Positions 726 to 63,919 of a DNA stretch of 64,000 nucleotides are shown here, piece by piece (position 1 is the first letter of the stretch; every line of letters begins with the position of its first letter). The stretch lies in NCBI GenBank assembly GCA_024277435.1, contig JAJRVJ010000024.1, positions 276 to 64,275 on the forward strand, read 5' to 3'. The notes beneath the pieces were generated by a model, which saw only the letters and a program-made list of their open reading frames with translations, had not been told where the DNA came from and ran no database searches. The stretch comes from Patescibacteria group bacterium (GTDB lineage: Bacteria > Patescibacteriota > Patescibacteriia > UBA9570). A program made the translations under genes and the position numbers.

Positions 726-757
726 TTGACAAAAACAATACCATGCAGATGGATATA
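726..757 (+). promoter_or_regulatory. candidate sigma70-type promoter driving the GC-rich mini-gene
   Basis: Perfect TTGACA at 726-731 in AT-rich DNA immediately before the GC-rich block. The -10 is poor (GATATA/TGGATA about 17-20 nt downstream). An AGGAG motif lies upstream of the ATG at 780. Confidence 0.3.
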
Positions 758-779
758 CCACCCCAAGAGGAGATCTCCA

Positions 780-1053
780 ATGACCCCGATCGAGCAGATC
801 ACCGCCGAGAACGGCCACGACCGCGCCACCAGCGCGGAGCAGTGCTCCAGCGAAGAGATCAGTCAGCCCCAACACGGGCATCACCCTGGTCACCGATGGC
901 AATATCTCCGAAAATGGCAAGTTCATCACCGGAACCACCTACGTGGTGGCCTGGTGGAGCGGTGTGTGCGTGCACATCAGCTTCACACGCAACGCCGACA
1001 CCAAGGCCGTACTGGCCATCATCAAGGCCGGCGAGCCGAAGATGGCGGCCTAG
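780..1053 (+). pseudogene. GC-rich small foreign-like gene, apparently frameshifted near 866-880
   Basis: AGGAG plus ATG at 780 gives a protein-like MTPIEQITAENGHDRATSAEQCSSEEISQPQ. At the CCCC/GGG run (about 866-880) the protein-like reading moves to the +1 frame: ...NTGITLVTDGNISENGKFITGTTYVVAWWSGVCVHISFTRNADTKAVLAIIKAGEPKMAA, stopping at TAG 1051-1053. The other frames read His/Arg-rich junk typical of off-frame GC-rich DNA. Confidence 0.35.
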
Positions 1054-1079
1054 AGGCTGATCGAGTCTTACCTTCGACG

Positions 1080-1102
1080 CTACCAAATGAGGTAGTTTTT
1101 TT
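1080..1102 (+). terminator. candidate intrinsic terminator after the GC-rich mini-gene
   Basis: A ctacc-aaatga-ggtag hairpin followed by seven T. The stem is weak (5 bp). Confidence 0.35.
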
Positions 1103-29206: not shown

Positions 29207-29355
29207 AGATATGCATTATAGCATATTCTAAGACCTCACCCATAATCTCGACCCATCCCCTTACAGGAGAGGGATTATTGACGCATATTCCCCGTCTCCT
29301 GAAAGGAGAAGGGGTTAGGGGAAAAGGTCGAGACTAGGGATTGGGTGAGGTTTTT

Positions 29356-29411
29356 TTAGAAAAGCAAAAGGCCCGTGAACCTTAATGGTGGAATACACCA
29401 GTTCACGGGCC
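29356..29411 (-). terminator. intrinsic terminator for the GC-rich island transcript (minus strand)
   Basis: Perfect 11-bp stem ggcccgtgaac / gttcacgggcc (29370-29380 / 29401-29411) with a 20-nt loop. An A-run lies on the plus strand just before it, so a U-run follows the hairpin on the minus-strand RNA. Confidence 0.5.
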
Positions 29412-29561
29412 AGATTGTTTGCCGCCGACTCCCGCTGCAAGAGCAAGGCCGGTCAGGCTGGGACCGCGTTTACGCGACCCCACGGGGTTTGGGTTGGGAG
29501 CTCTACTCAGCTCAACCAACCGATGTGCGTTTTACTTCCGGGAGGTAGCCGGAAGGGGGCT

Positions 29562-30116
29562 CTAGAACAACCAGAGGAGGAAGTCCTTGAACTCCTCCCC
29601 CATCGACACCGTGCTCTCCGCGTGCCAGAAGCCCGCGGGGTAGCCGAACGTGAGGTAGAACCCGAGGATGACGCCGCACGTCATGACGACGTACCAGAAC
29701 CGGCGCATGCCGATCCCGTTCACGAGCTTCACGTTCTGCAAGAACACGAAGCTCAGCGACAGGCCGATGACGACCACCGTGAAGCGGGCGTCCATCAGCC
29801 GGGCCGGAGCGTTCGGCGCGATCCAGTCCACCGGGCCAGACATAACGTCCAGCCCCCAGGCGAACAGGAACCACAGCACCGAAAAGATCGGCGCTGCGAT
29901 AATCACCGAGATCACCGCCCAGGCCAGCCGCTTGCCGAATCCCGGCAACTTCGCCTTGGGGTTGTACTTGGCCAGGAGCGACTGCTCCTCAGGACTCGTC
30001 TCCAGCTTCTGGCCGGTGACGACCCTCACCACCACCATGGTGGCGATGAGGCCAAGAGCCAGGAGCGCAGCGATGAAGCTACCGGCGATGATCCAGTTCA
30101 GGGTTGTGGTAGGCAT
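29562..30116 (-). CDS. GC-rich island gene: polytopic membrane protein (hypothetical)
   Basis: GGAG plus ATG at 30116 (MPTTTLNWIIAG...). About 5 TM helices, Trp-rich. Visibly much higher GC than the surrounding genes. Confidence 0.5.
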   Translation of the reverse strand: MPTTTLNWIIAGSFIAALLALGLIATMVVVRVVTGQKLETSPEEQSLLAKYNPKAKLPGFGKRLAWAVISVIIAAPIFSVLWFLFAWGLDVMSGPVDWIAPNAPARLMDARFTVVVIGLSLSFVFLQNVKLVNGIGMRRFWYVVMTCGVILGFYLTFGYPAGFWHAESTVSMGEEFKDFLLWLF

Positions 30117-30274
30117 TTTAAGCTCCGGTGAGTGATTGAGAGAAGAACAGAAAGTTAGTAGAGATGACCTCAATCCGCTGGCTCGTTGCCGTGCGGAGAA
30201 ATCTTTCTCTTTCATAAAGCGATGGGTCGCGGCGAGAGGAACGAATCCATCCTCGCCGCGACCCGGATTGGTGA

Positions 30275-31981
30275 CTACGGCCCACCGAAGGGACCGCCGC
30301 CACCGAAGCCAGCGCCAGCCGCCGCGCTAGCGATGGCAGGGTTGAGACCCATGCCACCAAGCGCGGTGATGACGTTGTCGATGCCGGCGTCACCCATGGC
30401 TAGCAACGTCGTAACGTTGGCCACCGCGCGAGCGATGGTAGCCTCGTCGATGTTGGCATCTCGGAGGCTCTGCACCATGTTGTGGATGTGGAACCGTCGG
30501 CTCAAGACATTCTTGTCCGCCTCGGAGGACGGCTCGGGGTCCTTCAGCCGGTTCTCGTCCCGCGGCACGTAGAGCCCGCAGCTCTCCGTCAACTGCGCCT
30601 CGAAGGCATTCAGCAACGGGAGAACACGAGCTTCCGCACGACGCGCCTGCATTTTCGGATGGCGCGAAGTGGCCGCCCGAAACTGACCAGGCTGAGCCAG
30701 CTCTGCGATCGGCATCATGGCCCCGACGAGGTCGAAGCCGACCACATGGCACAGGCCACCGGCCAATGCGTCCAACGCGTCGTCGAGGACTCGCACCCAG
30801 GATGGGTTGTTCCACATGAGGAACACGTTGATGACGCGCCAGTTGAATCCACCCTTGACGGTGACGTCAACCGTGCCGGCCATGTACGGCCCCTTCTCGT
30901 AGTCCCAGTCCGTGATGGGCTGGAGCAAGAAGTACTCGATGCCGAGGGCAGCGAGCGTGGGGCTGTGAGCCGCGAAGAACTCGAACATGGAGTCGTTCAA
31001 CGTCATGATCCGCGTGTAGAACGGGATGCCGGGGAAGGCGAACCCGGGGCCAACCCAGAGGTTCCGGTTAAGGAAGGGCCGGGGGTCAGCCCGGTTCTCC
31101 AGATCCACCTGCATCCAGGTCCAGACCTCCTCGAGGTTTCCGGTGATCGTCCACCACAGCCCAGGCCACAACGGCAAGGGCTCGTTAGGCAGCGGAACGC
31201 CGGTGAGGTTCGCGATGGCGTGGGAGGGGTTACCACCCGCGCCGAACATCTTGGCGACGCCGGGCTTGTCCACCGCGGCGTACCAGACGTTGCGATCCGC
31301 CATCCACATGTTGATCGAGATCCAGGTGAGGAGCACGACCAAGACGATTCCGACGGTAACGATGACCACTACGCCCTGCATCACCACGCTGAACCAGCCA
31401 CTGAGGCTGGTCTGTGCCCAACCAACACCCTGCAATCCCCACCAAAGGAGAACGCCCGCCACAGCGGAGCGCAAGCCCCAGTAGAAGGCGCCGGGCCGCA
31501 CCACGAAGTGGACGAACCGGCTGGCGAGGATGTAGCCGAACATGATGGCGGCCAGGATGAGCCACGTCTTCCCAGCCATGGCCGGGTCGTAGATGGCTCC
31601 AGCCTTCACGGGCAGCACGTGGATGAGCTTCATCATCCAGTGGTCCGCGCCCCAAGGAAGCGTCTTCGGCTTCACGAAGGGGAGGAAGTAGATGAAGGTG
31701 ATCGCCATGCCCTGCAAGAGGGCGACGGGGCTCCACGGCTGGCCGACGACGAGCGTGTTATCACGCCGGCGGGTGAAGTAACCGGTGAGCGCCCAAACAG
31801 CCGCGGCCATGAGGGCCGGGACGAAATGATCCATGTTGATGGGGTTGGGGTTGGGGTTAGAAAAGTTGAGGCTGTCGATCACGTCCTTGGCGAAGAACGC
31901 CAGGACGAAGATCCAGATAAGATTGAGGAAGGACATGAAACGCCGGAAGTTTCCGAAGTGCATTAGAATCTCCTGATGCAC
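30275..31981 (-). CDS. GC-rich island gene: 568-aa polytopic membrane protein with a soluble C-terminal domain and Gly-rich tail (hypothetical)
   Basis: A 1.7-kb open frame in GC-rich DNA. Seven or more N-terminal TM helices, a Trp-rich soluble region, and a tail ending ...AGAGFGGGGPFGGP. No family recognised. Confidence 0.55.
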   Translation of the reverse strand: MHQEILMHFGNFRRFMSFLNLIWIFVLAFFAKDVIDSLNFSNPNPNPINMDHFVPALMAAAVWALTGYFTRRRDNTLVVGQPWSPVALLQGMAITFIYFLPFVKPKTLPWGADHWMMKLIHVLPVKAGAIYDPAMAGKTWLILAAIMFGYILASRFVHFVVRPGAFYWGLRSAVAGVLLWWGLQGVGWAQTSLSGWFSVVMQGVVVIVTVGIVLVVLLTWISINMWMADRNVWYAAVDKPGVAKMFGAGGNPSHAIANLTGVPLPNEPLPLWPGLWWTITGNLEEVWTWMQVDLENRADPRPFLNRNLWVGPGFAFPGIPFYTRIMTLNDSMFEFFAAHSPTLAALGIEYFLLQPITDWDYEKGPYMAGTVDVTVKGGFNWRVINVFLMWNNPSWVRVLDDALDALAGGLCHVVGFDLVGAMMPIAELAQPGQFRAATSRHPKMQARRAEARVLPLLNAFEAQLTESCGLYVPRDENRLKDPEPSSEADKNVLSRRFHIHNMVQSLRDANIDEATIARAVANVTTLLAMGDAGIDNVITALGGMGLNPAIASAAAGAGFGGGGPFGGP

Positions 31982-32602
31982 GAGAACTTTTTGGGTAAAC
32001 CCAGGATAGTAAATTTCCCCGAACCAACGCTTCCGCGCCAGCCCGGTTAACTACCCCTCGATCTTGTTGACCTACCCACCACTGGGCAAGAGTCATAATT
32101 TTCCATTGCACCCTTGCGGATGGTAGGCAGATCGATGTATGGGGCCTAATAAAACCACATGCATCGATCTGCCTGTTATAGGTAACAGATCTATTGTTAT
32201 TTCGTATGTAAGTTGTCAAAGATCACCCGTACTACAATTCCGTCCATTACTGCGCGTCCCCCGTAGGGGATCAATTGCTTGTAGAGGTACAAACGTTTTG
32301 CGCCTCTACTTCAATTGATACATTAATTATACGCTGGCTATTTGGTACTATATATATGTGTTTGGTGTATATTTGAAAGAGTGCATTCCTTCAAATAACA
32401 CCTGTTGATTATACGCCGCTCTGTTATTACCTTCGATAGCTATACAGTGCATAACGTATATATTGCATCATCAATAAGATGACTAATCAGTTTAGACCTA
32501 GTAGCTCAAACCCACAATATATAAAAGGTGCACAACTGAAAAGTAAAACATTATAATTAAAAAATAACTATTTGTCAATAATCTCTATCACAATCAATAT
32601 TA

Positions 32603-61481: not shown

Positions 61482-61550
61482 GTTCTTCGACCTCCTCCCT
61501 CAAGCCTTCTCCTGTAAGGAGAGGAAGGAGCGTAGCGGAGGGAGAGGTTA

Positions 61551-62405
61551 CTACTTATCAACCGTAGACCTTTTCATAATCCACATAAATACCTGATGTG
61601 GCAATACTTTGGATAATAGTATTGTCATCATTGCATCAGTACCAGCAGCATAGCGCATTTTTGAACTTGAACTTATAGCAGCATTATAAATAGCCTTCGC
61701 TACTACGTTGGACTGGCTACCATTCTTGCCTGCTACTACGTATTGCTTCCACATTTTTTCTAATATACTTTTATACACGCTCATAAACTTCTCACGTGTA
61801 CCGGTTTTCATAGAACGGCCGTAAAAATCTGTATCAATTGCTCCAGGCTCAACCACTTTTACTTTTATGTTGAATGGTTGCAGTTCATAAAATAATCCTT
61901 CCGAAAAACCTTCCACCGCAAACTTAGTGCTGTTATACACGCTATAATATGGAACAGTAAATTTTCCTCCCATAGAAGAAATATTTACAATCGTTCCCCC
62001 ACCCTGTTCGCGCATAAGTGGTGCTACTTCTCGGCAGGTGTGCATTACACCAAATACGTTTACATCATATTGTTGACGTACTTCTTCTGGTGTGAAAATT
62101 TCAAATGCGCCATACAAGCCGTAGCCTGCATTATTAATAAGTACATCAATGCGGCCAAATCTTTCCTGCACGTCTTTTACGGCGGCGGCGATAGTTTCGG
62201 GTTTAGTAACATCTAAACTTACAAGATAGAATTTATCAGCATCGAATTGATCGCGATATTTATCTGGATTGCGCATAGTGGCTACTACTTGCCAACCTCT
62301 AGACGTAAATAACTCTGCGGTAACTTTACCAATACCAGTTCCTGCGCCAGTGATTAACACAACTTTTTTCTTCTCTGTACTTTCTACGGTAGTCTCATTC
62401 TCCAT
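61551..62405 (-). CDS. short-chain dehydrogenase/reductase (SDR) family oxidoreductase
   Basis: VVLITGAGTGIGK (TGxxxGxG), NNAG, and the catalytic S...YxxxK (SSMGG...YNSTKFAV). Confidence 0.85.
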   Translation of the reverse strand: MENETTVESTEKKKVVLITGAGTGIGKVTAELFTSRGWQVVATMRNPDKYRDQFDADKFYLVSLDVTKPETIAAAVKDVQERFGRIDVLINNAGYGLYGAFEIFTPEEVRQQYDVNVFGVMHTCREVAPLMREQGGGTIVNISSMGGKFTVPYYSVYNSTKFAVEGFSEGLFYELQPFNIKVKVVEPGAIDTDFYGRSMKTGTREKFMSVYKSILEKMWKQYVVAGKNGSQSNVVAKAIYNAAISSSSKMRYAAGTDAMMTILLSKVLPHQVFMWIMKRSTVDK

Positions 62406-62472: not shown

Positions 62473-62501
62473 TTGACTAGTTATCAATAATTCCTTAATG
62501 T
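62473..62501 (+). promoter_or_regulatory. candidate sigma70 promoter reading into GC-rich cassette 1
   Basis: TTGACT (62473-62478), a 17-nt spacer, then TAATGT (62496-62501). The module cttgacta...aatgtt recurs at 62905-62936. Confidence 0.4.
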
Positions 62502-62741
62502 TTCATCACACTATTCTAGTGCAGAACCACAGCTAGAGGTGGACATGAACTCTAAAGTCAACACTTCCTCCAACCGGCGCGGCTCCAAGGGCTGGCGCCG
62601 GCGAGCAAGAGCTGTGCAAGTGCACTGAGTGCGGCAAGCACTTCAAGCCCTACGTCGGCTCCAGCAGACAGGGAGGCTGGGGACTCTAGGAGCCTGGAAG
62701 TTCTGCACTAAAACAAGCTCACGTACAAACCATCGCACGTG

Positions 62742-62824
62742 AGCAGGAGGAACAACGACCCCAACGACATCAGCCCATTCAAGCTGATGTCGTTGGGGTC
62801 GTGTTTCATTTACACGATTTTTTA
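62742..62824. repeat. 83-bp direct repeat copy 1 (AGGAGG + perfect 18-bp hairpin + T-run)
   Basis: agcaggaggaacaacGACCCCAACGACATCAGCccattcaaGCTGATGTCGTTGGGGTCgtgtttcatttacacgatttttta. Identical to 63372-63454 except for 3 nt inside the 3' stem arm. Confidence 0.85.
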
Positions 62825-62906
62825 TGCCTTTATCTAAGAATAAATCAATGATCTATCCTTACAATATATAATTACCGAATAATAAATAATACAACAACTA
62901 TATTTC

Positions 62907-62934
62907 TTGACTAAGTACAATATTGCATTACAAT
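62907..62934 (+). promoter_or_regulatory. candidate sigma70 promoter reading into GC-rich cassette 2
   Basis: TTGACT (62907-62912), a 16-nt spacer, then TACAAT (62929-62934). A similar module lies upstream of cassette 1. Confidence 0.35.
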
Positions 62935-62974
62935 GTTCTCACCCAATCATTGGGAGTAACCCAGGAGACATCGT

Positions 62975-63365
62975 GCAACGACCACCTATCACCCTGTCCA
63001 ACGTTCCGCTGATTACCGGGCACTCCTGCCCCAGCTGCCAGCGGACCACGAACGAGACGCTCAGCCTGTTCGGTACCGCAGACGACAAGCTCGCCGAACT
63101 GTTCACCTGCAACCACTGCGGCGCTCTCTACCGGCATACCATGCCGGCGAACTGGAAACCGCGCGTGGACACGATGCCCACGGCGCCGGACGACCGCACC
63201 TGCGGCCACACCAACTGCGGCGTACGACCACGGTCTCGGTACATCATCGGGCGTCATACCACCATGGGCTTCAAGGCGCTGATGTGCTGCAGTGCGTGCC
63301 AGCGGTACTCGATCCTGCCGCGCAAGCTACCGGACACCATGCCGCTGCTGGAACCTCGGCGCTGA
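62975..63365 (+). CDS. GC-rich small protein with two CxxC pairs (zinc-ribbon-like), hypothetical
   Basis: GGAG then GTG at 62975 (the ORF track gives an ATG at 62907 in AT-rich DNA). CPSC...x24...CNHC, and a second cluster CGHTNC...CCSAC. Visibly GC-rich. Followed 7 bp later by 83-bp repeat copy 2. Confidence 0.4.
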
Positions 63366-63371
63366 TCTCCC

Positions 63372-63454
63372 AGCAGGAGGAACAACGACCCCAACGACAT
63401 CAGCCCATTCAAGCTGATGTCCGCGGGGTCGTGTTTCATTTACACGATTTTTTA
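63372..63454. repeat. 83-bp direct repeat copy 2
   Basis: Same sequence as 62742-62824 with cgtt changed to ccgc in the 3' stem arm, which weakens the hairpin in this copy. Confidence 0.85.
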
Positions 63455-63538: not shown

Positions 63539-63919
63539 ATGAACAATGATAACGAGCCAAAAACCATCGTCCTCATTGAGGATGATCAATTCCTAGCTAA
63601 GGTGTGTAACGACTACCTCCTCGAAACAGGTTATCACGTTGTCATGGCTAATCACGGAGATGATGCTGTAGACATAGTTGAAGAACATCAGCCAGATATG
63701 ATCCTATTAGATTTAATACTGCCCGGAAGAAATGGATTTGAAATACTAGAAGAAATTCGCCTACACGAAGAAATTTACGATACGAATGTAATTATTTTAT
63801 CGAACCTATCTCAGCCGGAAGATATTTCACGCGCTAAAAAACTTGGCGTAATTGAATTTTTTATAAAAGCTAATACACAACTCCGTACGGTTGTGGAGCA
63901 TGTAAATAAGGTACTCTAA
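63539..63919 (+). CDS. stand-alone response-regulator receiver domain protein (CheY-like)
   Basis: IVLIEDDQFL (acidic pocket), the phospho-acceptor Asp in MILLDLILPG, and the conserved T/S and K (KANTQ). No output domain. Confidence 0.85.
   Translation: MNNDNEPKTIVLIEDDQFLAKVCNDYLLETGYHVVMANHGDDAVDIVEEHQPDMILLDLILPGRNGFEILEEIRLHEEIYDTNVIILSNLSQPEDISRAKKLGVIEFFIKANTQLRTVVEHVNKVL

Follow-up and report, generated by a model that had tools for sequence, protein, structure and literature searches.

The sequence analysed here, referred to below as the window, is a stretch of 64,000 nucleotides (nt) from Patescibacteria group bacterium (GenBank assembly GCA_024277435.1, contig JAJRVJ010000024.1). 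Near its right-hand end, between the gene of an SDR-family oxidoreductase and that of a response-regulator receiver protein, lie two tandem units (62473-63454), each consisting of an AT-rich promoter, a body of 60-70% GC and an 83-nt element. The GC content reaches 56-70% at 62550-62800 and 62950-63400, compared with 20-30% in the spacers and ~40% in the window as a whole. Unit 1 adjoins the SDR gene, and promoter, leader and terminator are present in both units. The original prediction, drawn from the letters of the window, had described two self-contained units, each with a promoter, a GC-rich body and a shared 3' hairpin or terminator, and had called their DNA compositionally alien to its surroundings; the layout and the GC profile bear out both statements. 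The two promoter modules, which it took to be near-identical, turn out to be only similar: by direct count, 16 of 33 ungapped positions are equal, and both modules contain CTTGACTA and AATGTT at the same spacing. The locus is flanked by a conserved folate operon and the SDR gene on one side and by the response regulator on the other. Since a search of the window found neither tRNA nor tmRNA, there is no tRNA-linked integration site in it.

Unit 2 carries an open reading frame of 130 codons (ORF130; coordinates of this and other features are collected in Table 1). The GC contents at its first, second and third codon positions (GC1, GC2 and GC3) are 0.56, 0.55 and 0.83, a pattern that is missing from the other frames and that marks a genuine gene moulded by high-GC codon usage. 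A zinc-ribbon protein of about 130 residues had been foreseen here, and it is indeed encoded; instead of the two CxxC pairs initially counted, however, it has four Cys pairs (C19/C22, C46/C49, C77/C82 and C106/C109) and therefore two zinc ribbons. Searches with this protein returned no match, either in a word-indexed search or with phmmer against 1.84 billion representatives, and its structure model is too poor for use (pLDDT, the predicted local distance difference test score, of 46.5).

A protein family emerged from the comparison of contigs that carry relatives of the window's SDR protein (61-67% identity); the contigs compared in all are designated L001-L011. In L001 (GCA_040960375.1) an islet of 63-74% GC lies directly upstream of the SDR gene, divergent from it; its product, of 209 aa, has two zinc ribbons behind a basic N-terminus. 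Over 1.9-4.7 kb, the Logan assemblies L002 and L003 match L001 at 100% identity. A profile search started from L001 and L006 yielded only three proteins, all of the same lineage (P0121-P0123, on contigs L007-L009), and L010 and L011 came from the remaining contigs of SDR relatives. We name this lineage-restricted orphan family ZnR. Nine further assemblies (L001-L003 and L006-L011) carry its unit at this very site and likewise divergent from the SDR gene, the divergent pairing of SDR and zinc-ribbon genes being seen in L001, L007, L008, L009, L010 and L011. L007 is, moreover, syntenic with the window at 52-62 kb (glmS, prfB, folate genes, folP and SDR). In several deep lineages, then, the unit has one fixed site, where it is divergent from the SDR gene. 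The number of zinc-ribbon modules and the exact context do vary. In L006 (728-1471, minus strand) there are three modules rather than two, owing to an internal module insertion, and an extra gene for a 328-aa protein separates ZnR from the SDR gene. The first 500 nt of L010 (1-500; GCA_964345015.1) hold a distant member (RRYHRNLKMYRR..., CPHC...CLRCDSHY) divergent from SDR, with a run of N within the gene.

Members of the family share a common plan. A sigma-70-like promoter, TTGACT-N17-TAAGGT (TTGACTT-N11-AATTCYTTAAGGT), with TAATGT as a variant in the -10 box, is followed by a leader of ~30 nt that contains a GGAGG ribosome-binding site and ends in GGAGGTGCA-ATG. The coding sequence specifies a protein of 190-250 aa with a basic N-terminus and 2-3 zinc ribbons, and its GC3 of 0.82-0.91 is confined to the coding frame. 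The 3' untranslated region (3'UTR) contains conserved hairpins and closes with CAGGAGGAAC-N-GACCCC[stem]GGGGTC, behind which stands TTCTTTTAT. High GC content sets in just past the -10 box and stops at the terminator. A palindromic sequence over the -10 box, CCTTAAGG, was considered as an operator and rejected, as it is not maintained across alleles. Cys pairs on the zinc-ribbon pattern number four in ORF130 and 4-6 in family members, and all are invariant. AlphaFold2 models a family protein as two N-terminal helices followed by beta-hairpin ribbons (pLDDT 63) and sets the Cys pairs on the beta-hairpins (pLDDT 70-82), so that a zinc-ribbon fold is predicted. The top Foldseek hits are two-ribbon RNA-polymerase subunits, with a non-significant E of 0.36. 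Back-translated family scans of GTDB genomes, viral contigs and JGI metagenomes gave no confirmed relative, and tblastn of the family against phage and plasmid records gave nothing. As far as these searches can tell, ZnR is a family without a homologue outside this lineage.

Both units of the window can be related to this plan. ORF130 matches the family in pairwise BLASTP (E 0.002) and in hhalign (E 1.1e-4, probability 56%), where 102 columns are colinear and both ribbons are aligned. The unit 2 protein lacks the basic domain of ~75 residues that characterizes the family; it retains an intact frame, all eight Cys ligands and the family codon bias. ACG has replaced the ancestral ATG, five bases upstream of which a GTG follows a new AGGAGA. 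These comparisons indicate that unit 2 is a diverged paralog of the ZnR family.

In unit 1, the promoter core AATTCCTTAA agrees in every base with that of L007 and L009. About 25 N-terminal codons (MNSKVNTSSNRRGSKGWRRR...) match the family start M.S..STSPTPA.KK.RRH by our own reading, MAFFT having placed this stretch poorly. The last knuckle and tail, LCKCTECGKHFKPYV, align with family LCTCGRCGKVYKPYV in another frame. DNA alignment of unit 1 with L001, L007, L008 and L009 shows an internal gap followed by a well-aligned C-terminal block. Because the N-terminal and knuckle remnants stand in different frames, ~430 nt of coding sequence appear to be missing between them. There is no codon periodicity in any frame, and the base composition is still ~60% GC. 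The alignments thus identify unit 1 as the ortholog, turned pseudogene when ~430 nt of its coding sequence were deleted. Its transcription may persist. The short Arg-rich reading frame of 27 codons noted in the original prediction does exist, and its impression that unit 1 is decayed was right. The leader of unit 1 also contains an insert (62514-62527) that pairs with 62700-62713 in the 3'UTR as a 14-nt inverted repeat (93% complementary), which the relatives do not have. This pairing closes the entire unit 1 remnant into one multi-stem structure, and it may be due to chance or to an RNA-level role acquired by the pseudogene transcript. The combination that defines the family (the basic N-terminal domain, RRHPTSRGMRKHVR..KRLG..EN, together with at least two ribbons in one frame) is absent from both window units. 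With the remnants of unit 1 out of frame and unit 2 lacking the N-terminal domain, both should be regarded as derived or degenerate members of ZnR.

The 83-nt element is a direct repeat (62742-62824 and 63372-63454) whose copies are identical at 80 of 83 positions. A perfect 18-bp stem with an 8-nt loop had been attributed to each copy. Such a stem, free of bulges, is present in copy 1 (62757-62774 / 62783-62800), whereas the 3' arm of the copy 2 hairpin has three adjacent mismatches (GTT to CGC). This change (63413-63430) creates CCGCGG, a SacII-type palindrome, and opens an internal loop in the stem; the three substitutions look as if one multi-nucleotide event had produced them. Four occurrences of the 18-mer arm were counted in the window, compared with 0.04 expected by chance. 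The stems of the element are 18-20 bp long and their folding energies are -45.7 and -36.1 kcal/mol (z of -9.5 and -6.6). The stem-loop lies 7-60 nt beyond the stop codons, and a terminator scan flags 62755-62802. In the relatives, GGGGTC-(C/A)(G/A)TTCTTTTAT places the T-run directly after the stem. The window copies have GTGTTTCATTT at this position, then a small 6-bp hairpin (TCGTGT/ACACGA, 62799-62817) and only then T6 (62818-62823), so the T-run does not stand right behind the big hairpin in the window, contrary to the original description.

Several observations bear on the role of this element. RNAalifold applied to seven family 3' ends returns 22 pairs, of which 8 show compensatory double changes, although with only seven sequences the power is limited. 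Among the relatives the upper stem varies with compensatory changes, and GACCCC/GGGGTC and the T-run are fixed. The stem is extended by pairing between the purine tract AGGAGGAAC on its 5' side and the T-rich 3' tail. The AGGAGG before the hairpin likewise pairs with the T-rich 3' flank, and it is not a ribosome-binding site because no start codon follows. A covariance model built from the seven 3' ends matches just those seven ZnR sites in 122 kb (window plus loci), which argues for a family terminator and against a dispersed or recombination element. Exact-core hairpin scans of viral, GTDB-genome and JGI metagenome collections gave no matches. All this points to the 83-nt element being the intrinsic terminator of the ZnR family. 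The idea of a dispersed repeat, of the repetitive extragenic palindromic (REP) or MITE-like kind, was dropped on the strength of both the covariance model and the collection scans: the element was found solely at the 3' end of this gene family. The view that it is neither CRISPR nor attC is supported. An antisense small reading frame within the hairpin (MKHDPNDISLNG...) is, by our own reading, a by-product of the palindrome, not conserved in the terminators of relatives.

We therefore favour, with a probability of roughly 0.72, the explanation that the stretch arose by tandem duplication of one complete monocistronic transcription unit of the ZnR family, with partly decayed copies and the 83-bp element as its terminator. 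Copy 1 would be the ortholog that became a pseudogene after losing ~430 nt of coding sequence and falling out of frame. Copy 2 would have lost the basic N-terminal domain and diverged strongly, its frame and eight Cys ligands being retained. Terminator-anchored conversion or recombination would have homogenised the 3' ends, and the unit would have stayed at its fixed site divergent from SDR in several deep lineages, its alleles being swapped by homologous recombination. If this is the case, the two units are not independent insertions, since both derive from one gene located at this site in distant relatives. A number of points weigh against this explanation. ZnR is missing beside SDR in L004 and L005, and a ZnR homologue is absent from Pfam, PHROGs, PADLOC, PDB and the fold search. 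The promoters and the terminator are sequence-based predictions rather than mapped features. Both the tandem duplication and the homogenisation of terminators are deduced from one assembly. The sequence-only support for the membership of unit 2 is moderate (the hhalign probability of 56%), and an intact frame of 130 codons in DNA of 65% GC is weak functional evidence, the chance of a stop-free frame being a few percent by our own estimate. Finally, long vertical residence should erode the GC content, yet no erosion is seen.

Table 1. Coordinates of the features of the two units, of the genes on either side and of two orphan genes elsewhere in the window
Feature	Position	Strand	Basis and remarks
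SDR-family oxidoreductase gene	61551..62405	-	Pfam adh_short E 4e-53; conserved divergent neighbour of the zinc-ribbon unit
Unit 1 predicted promoter, TTGACT-N17-TAATGT	62473..62501	+	Motif search and alignments; orthologous to family TTGACTT-N11-AATTCYTTAAGGT
Unit 1 5' leader	62502..62544	+	GAGGTGG ribosome-binding remnant 62536-62542; aligned with family
Unit 1 N-terminus remnant (MNSKVNTSSNRRGSKGWRRRAR...)	62545..62628	+	27 codons and stop; Arg-rich; open reading frame list
Unit 1 last zinc knuckle and tail (ELCKCTECGKHFKPYVGSS..GGWGL*)	62609..62689	+	Translation; other frame than N-terminal remnant
Unit 1 3'UTR hairpin (GCTCACGT...ACGTGAGC)	62717..62744	+	Occupies the place of the family's second 3'UTR hairpin
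83-nt element, copy 1	62742..62824	+	AGGAGGAAC stem extension, hairpin 62757-62800, small hairpin 62799-62817, T6 62818-62823; covariance score 75.5 bits
Unit 2 predicted promoter, TTGACT-N16-TACAAT	62907..62934	+	Promoter scan, 10/12 matches; aligned to family promoter
Unit 2 leader	62935..62972	+	Homologous to family leader (CACCxAATCA...GGGAG); AGGAGA ribosome-binding site 62963-62968
Unit 2 gene (ORF130)	62973..63365	+	130 aa, GTG start, two zinc ribbons; without basic N-terminal domain
83-nt element, copy 2, predicted unit 2 terminator	63372..63454	+	Hairpin 63387-63430 with 3-nt internal mismatch; covariance score 66.5 bits
Response-regulator receiver gene	63539..63919	+	Pfam Response_reg E 1e-21; GC3 0.34; AT-rich native gene, right boundary of locus
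217-aa orphan membrane protein	29562-30215	-	GC3 ~0.84
568-aa orphan membrane protein, Gly-rich C-terminal tail	30275-31981	-	GC3 ~0.84

To trace how the unit has evolved, we compared ZnR with the flanking SDR gene. Among L001, L006, L007 and L008 the SDR proteins are 85-94% identical and the ZnR proteins 52-81%, and the order of similarities differs. The Nei-Gojobori dN/dS is 0.35-0.58 for ZnR versus 0.03-0.08 for SDR. At third codon positions, the close genomes L006, L007 and L008 have 71-79% identity in SDR and 55-60% in ZnR, where 56% is the identity expected at saturation under ZnR's own codon usage. For the distant pair L001 and L008 the relationship is reversed, SDR being saturated at 53% and ZnR having 71%. 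ZnR alleles evolve fast. Since the discordance between SDR and ZnR runs in both directions and goes beyond a difference in rate alone, alleles appear to have been exchanged between lineages at the locus, and we infer that homologous recombination, rather than mobility machinery of their own, swapped them. Within the window, the two 3' ends are 96% identical and the remainder of the units is far more diverged, which is consistent with gene conversion or recombination anchored in the terminator. The label of cassette thus holds insofar as the unit is exchanged between lineages and fails with respect to a dispersed 83-bp repeat; by and large, the reading as a mobile element or moron is unsupported and allele exchange at the locus is supported. 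The rapid turnover of ZnR suggests a role in a conflict or a regulatory interaction rather than in housekeeping. With its ribbons and Arg/Lys-rich N-terminus, the protein might perhaps bind nucleic acid or some protein partner.

Other explanations deserve consideration. The GC-rich segments might have been imported recently from a donor of high GC content, be it a bacterium, a plasmid or a virus (e.g. the host of an episymbiont), and have come to lie behind native promoters; their GC-richness would then be no more than a mark of foreign origin, and the locus an insertion hot spot. The contrast in GC3 (0.83-0.87 versus 0.33 in native genes) would be accounted for in this way, as would the strong AGGAG sites of island genes (native genes nearly lack them, at 4/62, and look leaderless), the presence of several other orphan islands, GC-rich and unrelated (window 741-1080 and 29360-32230, L007 18641-19800, L005 1421-1940), the patchy distribution and the discordant divergence; ComEC, encoded in the window, is compatible with DNA uptake. 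However, phmmer against the same 1.84 billion representatives and profile and word searches turned up no homologue in a high-GC organism, a phage or a plasmid, and GTDB genomes, JGI metagenomes, viral contigs and tblastn against phages and plasmids were equally empty. All eleven known copies reside in the AT-rich genomes of one clade, at the identical site and orientation and behind homologous AT-rich promoters, and the GC boundary coincides with transcript ends instead of arbitrary insertion ends. Furthermore, the more AT-rich L010 has a proportionally less GC-rich gene (GC3 0.63 versus 0.22), pointing to long residence. We thus regard recent import as unlikely. A mis-joining of GC-rich reads into an AT-rich contig, through chimeric assembly or contamination, could also produce a sharp switch in composition, and the 83-nt repeat might mislead an assembler. 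Yet the same architecture and site recur across assemblies that are independent of each other and represent at least nine read sets or metagenome-assembled genomes, L001, L002 and L003 are 100% identical across the AT/GC junctions despite separate read sets, and the junctions fall inside conserved promoter and terminator sequence, which leaves an artefact scarcely conceivable.

Phage morons or integron-like mobile cassettes, with the 83-bp hairpin as recombination site, would share with the observed units a promoter and terminator for each, the atypical composition, the tandem array and the conserved imperfect palindrome at every 3' end; read from the sequence, CCCCAAC/GTTGGGG even loosely resembles the attC core RYYYAAC/GTTRRRY. 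But no integrase or transposase Pfam match occurs among the called genes in 20 kb of L007 around the unit, the scanned neighbours in the window are SDR, folP and the response regulator, and the flanks are housekeeping genes of conserved synteny. The stem is perfect, no base being extrahelical, and a T-run comes after it, as it would in a terminator; the covariation of its upper part in relatives beside a fixed GACCCC/GGGGTC and T-run fits that role, and the element occurs nowhere else in the 122 kb or in the three public collections. No phage matches were obtained (PHROG, phage tblastn, viral contigs), nor is there any prophage context, so that the moron proposed in the original prediction finds no backing and this whole explanation seems highly improbable. 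We give equally little credence to structured non-coding RNAs, with unit 1 perhaps a small RNA. GC-rich islands amid AT-rich genomes are a classic signature of such RNAs, the GC-rich zone coincides with the transcribed zone, and unit 1 has the 14-nt pairing of its 5' and 3' UTRs described above and a fold z of -8.3 with the terminator included. Without the terminator, though, z is a marginal -1.9 for unit 1, compared with +0.4 for the body of unit 2 and -2.1 for L007; Rfam 15 has no match in the window at the gathering threshold and only miRNA-hairpin noise at the locus at E < 1; and third-position GC periodicity, conserved Cys codons and dN/dS < 1 show protein coding. Lastly, ORF130 might be a decayed zinc-finger fragment of a transposase, either of the TnpB/OrfB type, as was suggested at the outset, or of the IS1595 type. 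Pfam Zn_ribbon_IS1595 gives a weak match (E 0.022, 15.2 bits versus a cut-off of 25.4), as does the PADLOC Cas12 C-terminal region (E 0.03-0.1). These are, however, sub-threshold generic matches limited to one CxxC...CxxC stretch; OrfB_Zn_ribbon is not matched in the Pfam check, the flanks have no RuvC or transposase remnant, and ORF130 is colinear with ZnR over both ribbons, full-length members being free of such matches. The probability of this origin is, in our view, next to negligible.

The tandem-duplication model leaves the high GC content to be explained. ZnR GC3 is 0.82-0.91 versus 0.33 in the host genomes, and 0.62-0.65 versus 0.22 in L010. Either the residence model or the assumption of neutral amelioration must be incomplete, and the cause could be foreign origin with re-seeding or an active maintaining force, between which we do not choose. 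It is worth pointing out that further GC-rich orphan islets exist at other loci. In the window, a 2.9-kb island of ~61% GC (29360-32230) contains the two minus-strand orphan membrane-protein genes listed in Table 1. Its hairpin terminator is at ~29370-29415, and at ~32000-32230 there is a TTGACA-type promoter whose leader is long and structured. Its proteins have no Pfam, PHROG, PADLOC, phage or plasmid matches, and a scan of viral contigs with the 568-aa protein and ORF130 returned nothing. A third, small GC-rich island (741-1080) is laid out in the same way, with an AT-rich promoter, AGAGGAG-N8-ATG at 781, a GC-rich body and a small hairpin with T7 at ~1080-1105; a switch of frame midway suggests a frameshifted small gene or a sequencing error. 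In L007 (18641-19800, minus strand) an islet encodes a highly acidic 314-aa protein (GC3 0.87) with no Pfam or PADLOC match, and another lies in L005 at 1421-1940. A search of the literature on the GC-rich islet phenomenon found nothing relevant.

The islets also differ from resident genes in their translation signals. Every GC-island gene that we read has an AGGAG-type ribosome-binding site, whereas a Shine-Dalgarno core precedes the first ATG in only 4 of 62 native open reading frames. TATAAT-like hexamers lie 4-10 nt upstream of the native ATG in 14 of 46 cases versus 1 in the internal control, which suggests that native mRNAs are mostly leaderless. The coexistence of leaderless native genes and Shine-Dalgarno-led island genes offers a possible handle on translation-initiation regimes in an uncultured lineage. 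Small intergenic hairpins of the form CCYTCTCCT-loop-AGGAGARGG were also noticed (window 29295-29309 and 61508-61522; L001 3465-3481; L007 20031-20047 and 20071-20087). The two in the window compare with 0.02 expected, and one of them separates folP from SDR, which are convergent. Such hairpins probably serve as native bidirectional terminators or represent a REP-like element.

Based on these observations, one might tentatively speculate, although we consider it rather doubtful, that the clade carries a class of compositionally alien transcription units, which persist at fixed loci through speciation without ameliorating. Such units may be marked by a GC3 ~0.4-0.5 above that of the residents, by Shine-Dalgarno-led initiation amid a leaderless genome, by orphan proteins and by GC-richness extending from the transcription start to the terminator. 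If such a class is real, its persistence without amelioration would require an active force. Selection might act on the transcript (e.g. for resistance to an AU-directed RNase, or through a translation regime of its own). Alternatively, gene conversion at hot spots of recombination might be very strongly GC-biased, or a GC-rich gene pool as yet unseen, such as an episymbiont's host or virus, might re-seed the loci continually. ZnR would then be the first traceable family of this class.

The results have several implications. What appeared to be a mobile cassette with an odd 83-bp element would be a duplicated gene with its own promoter and terminator. ZnR is a new protein family that has been hidden from protein databases by a blind spot in gene calling. 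In public annotations, the genes called within the islets have the strand or the frame wrong (L001 5437-5907, plus strand; L006 567-1499, minus strand), and hence the true proteins are missing from those databases, with only three correctly called family members among 5.8 billion clusters. The reason is that gene callers trained on an AT-rich genome choose the wrong strand or frame in GC-rich islets; similar GC-islet genes are probably missed systematically. In addition, amelioration appears to fail here, with a GC3 of ~0.85 beside neighbours of ~0.3 across lineages whose SDR proteins are only ~60-65% identical.

It is useful to compare the ZnR unit with known systems. Like a phage moron, it is autonomous, has its own promoter and terminator and deviates in composition; unlike morons, it lies outside any prophage, has no phage homology and keeps a chromosomal site conserved across species. 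With integron cassettes and their attC sites it has in common an open reading frame followed by an imperfect palindrome, tandemly repeated. However, integron cassettes are mostly promoterless, whereas each ZnR unit has a promoter of its own; its stem is perfect and terminator-like, none of the called genes in the 20 kb of L007 matched an integrase, and the element goes with a single gene family. At the level of the terminator, the resemblance is to intrinsic terminators with an extended A-tract/U-tract stem: a GC-rich stem-loop precedes a T-run, the stem is kept by compensatory substitutions and the purine tract AGGAGGAAC pairs with the T-rich tail. The differences are that the T6 in the window is displaced by 17 nt by the second small hairpin, that the stem is unusually long (18-20 bp), and that the entire element with its flanks is conserved within a longer, hairpin-rich 3'UTR. 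At the level of the protein, the tandem zinc-ribbon proteins Rpb9/A12/C11 (TFIIS-like) likewise have two consecutive four-Cys ribbons of beta-hairpins, the Foldseek similarity being non-significant. As a locus, ZnR resembles replaceable accessory genes at recombination hot spots in its fixed site, conserved flanks, two-way discordance with the flanking gene, presence and absence, duplication and pseudogenes. A PADLOC search found no defence, surface or restriction function for it, and it differs from such genes in being a single small gene with an extreme and persistent compositional contrast.

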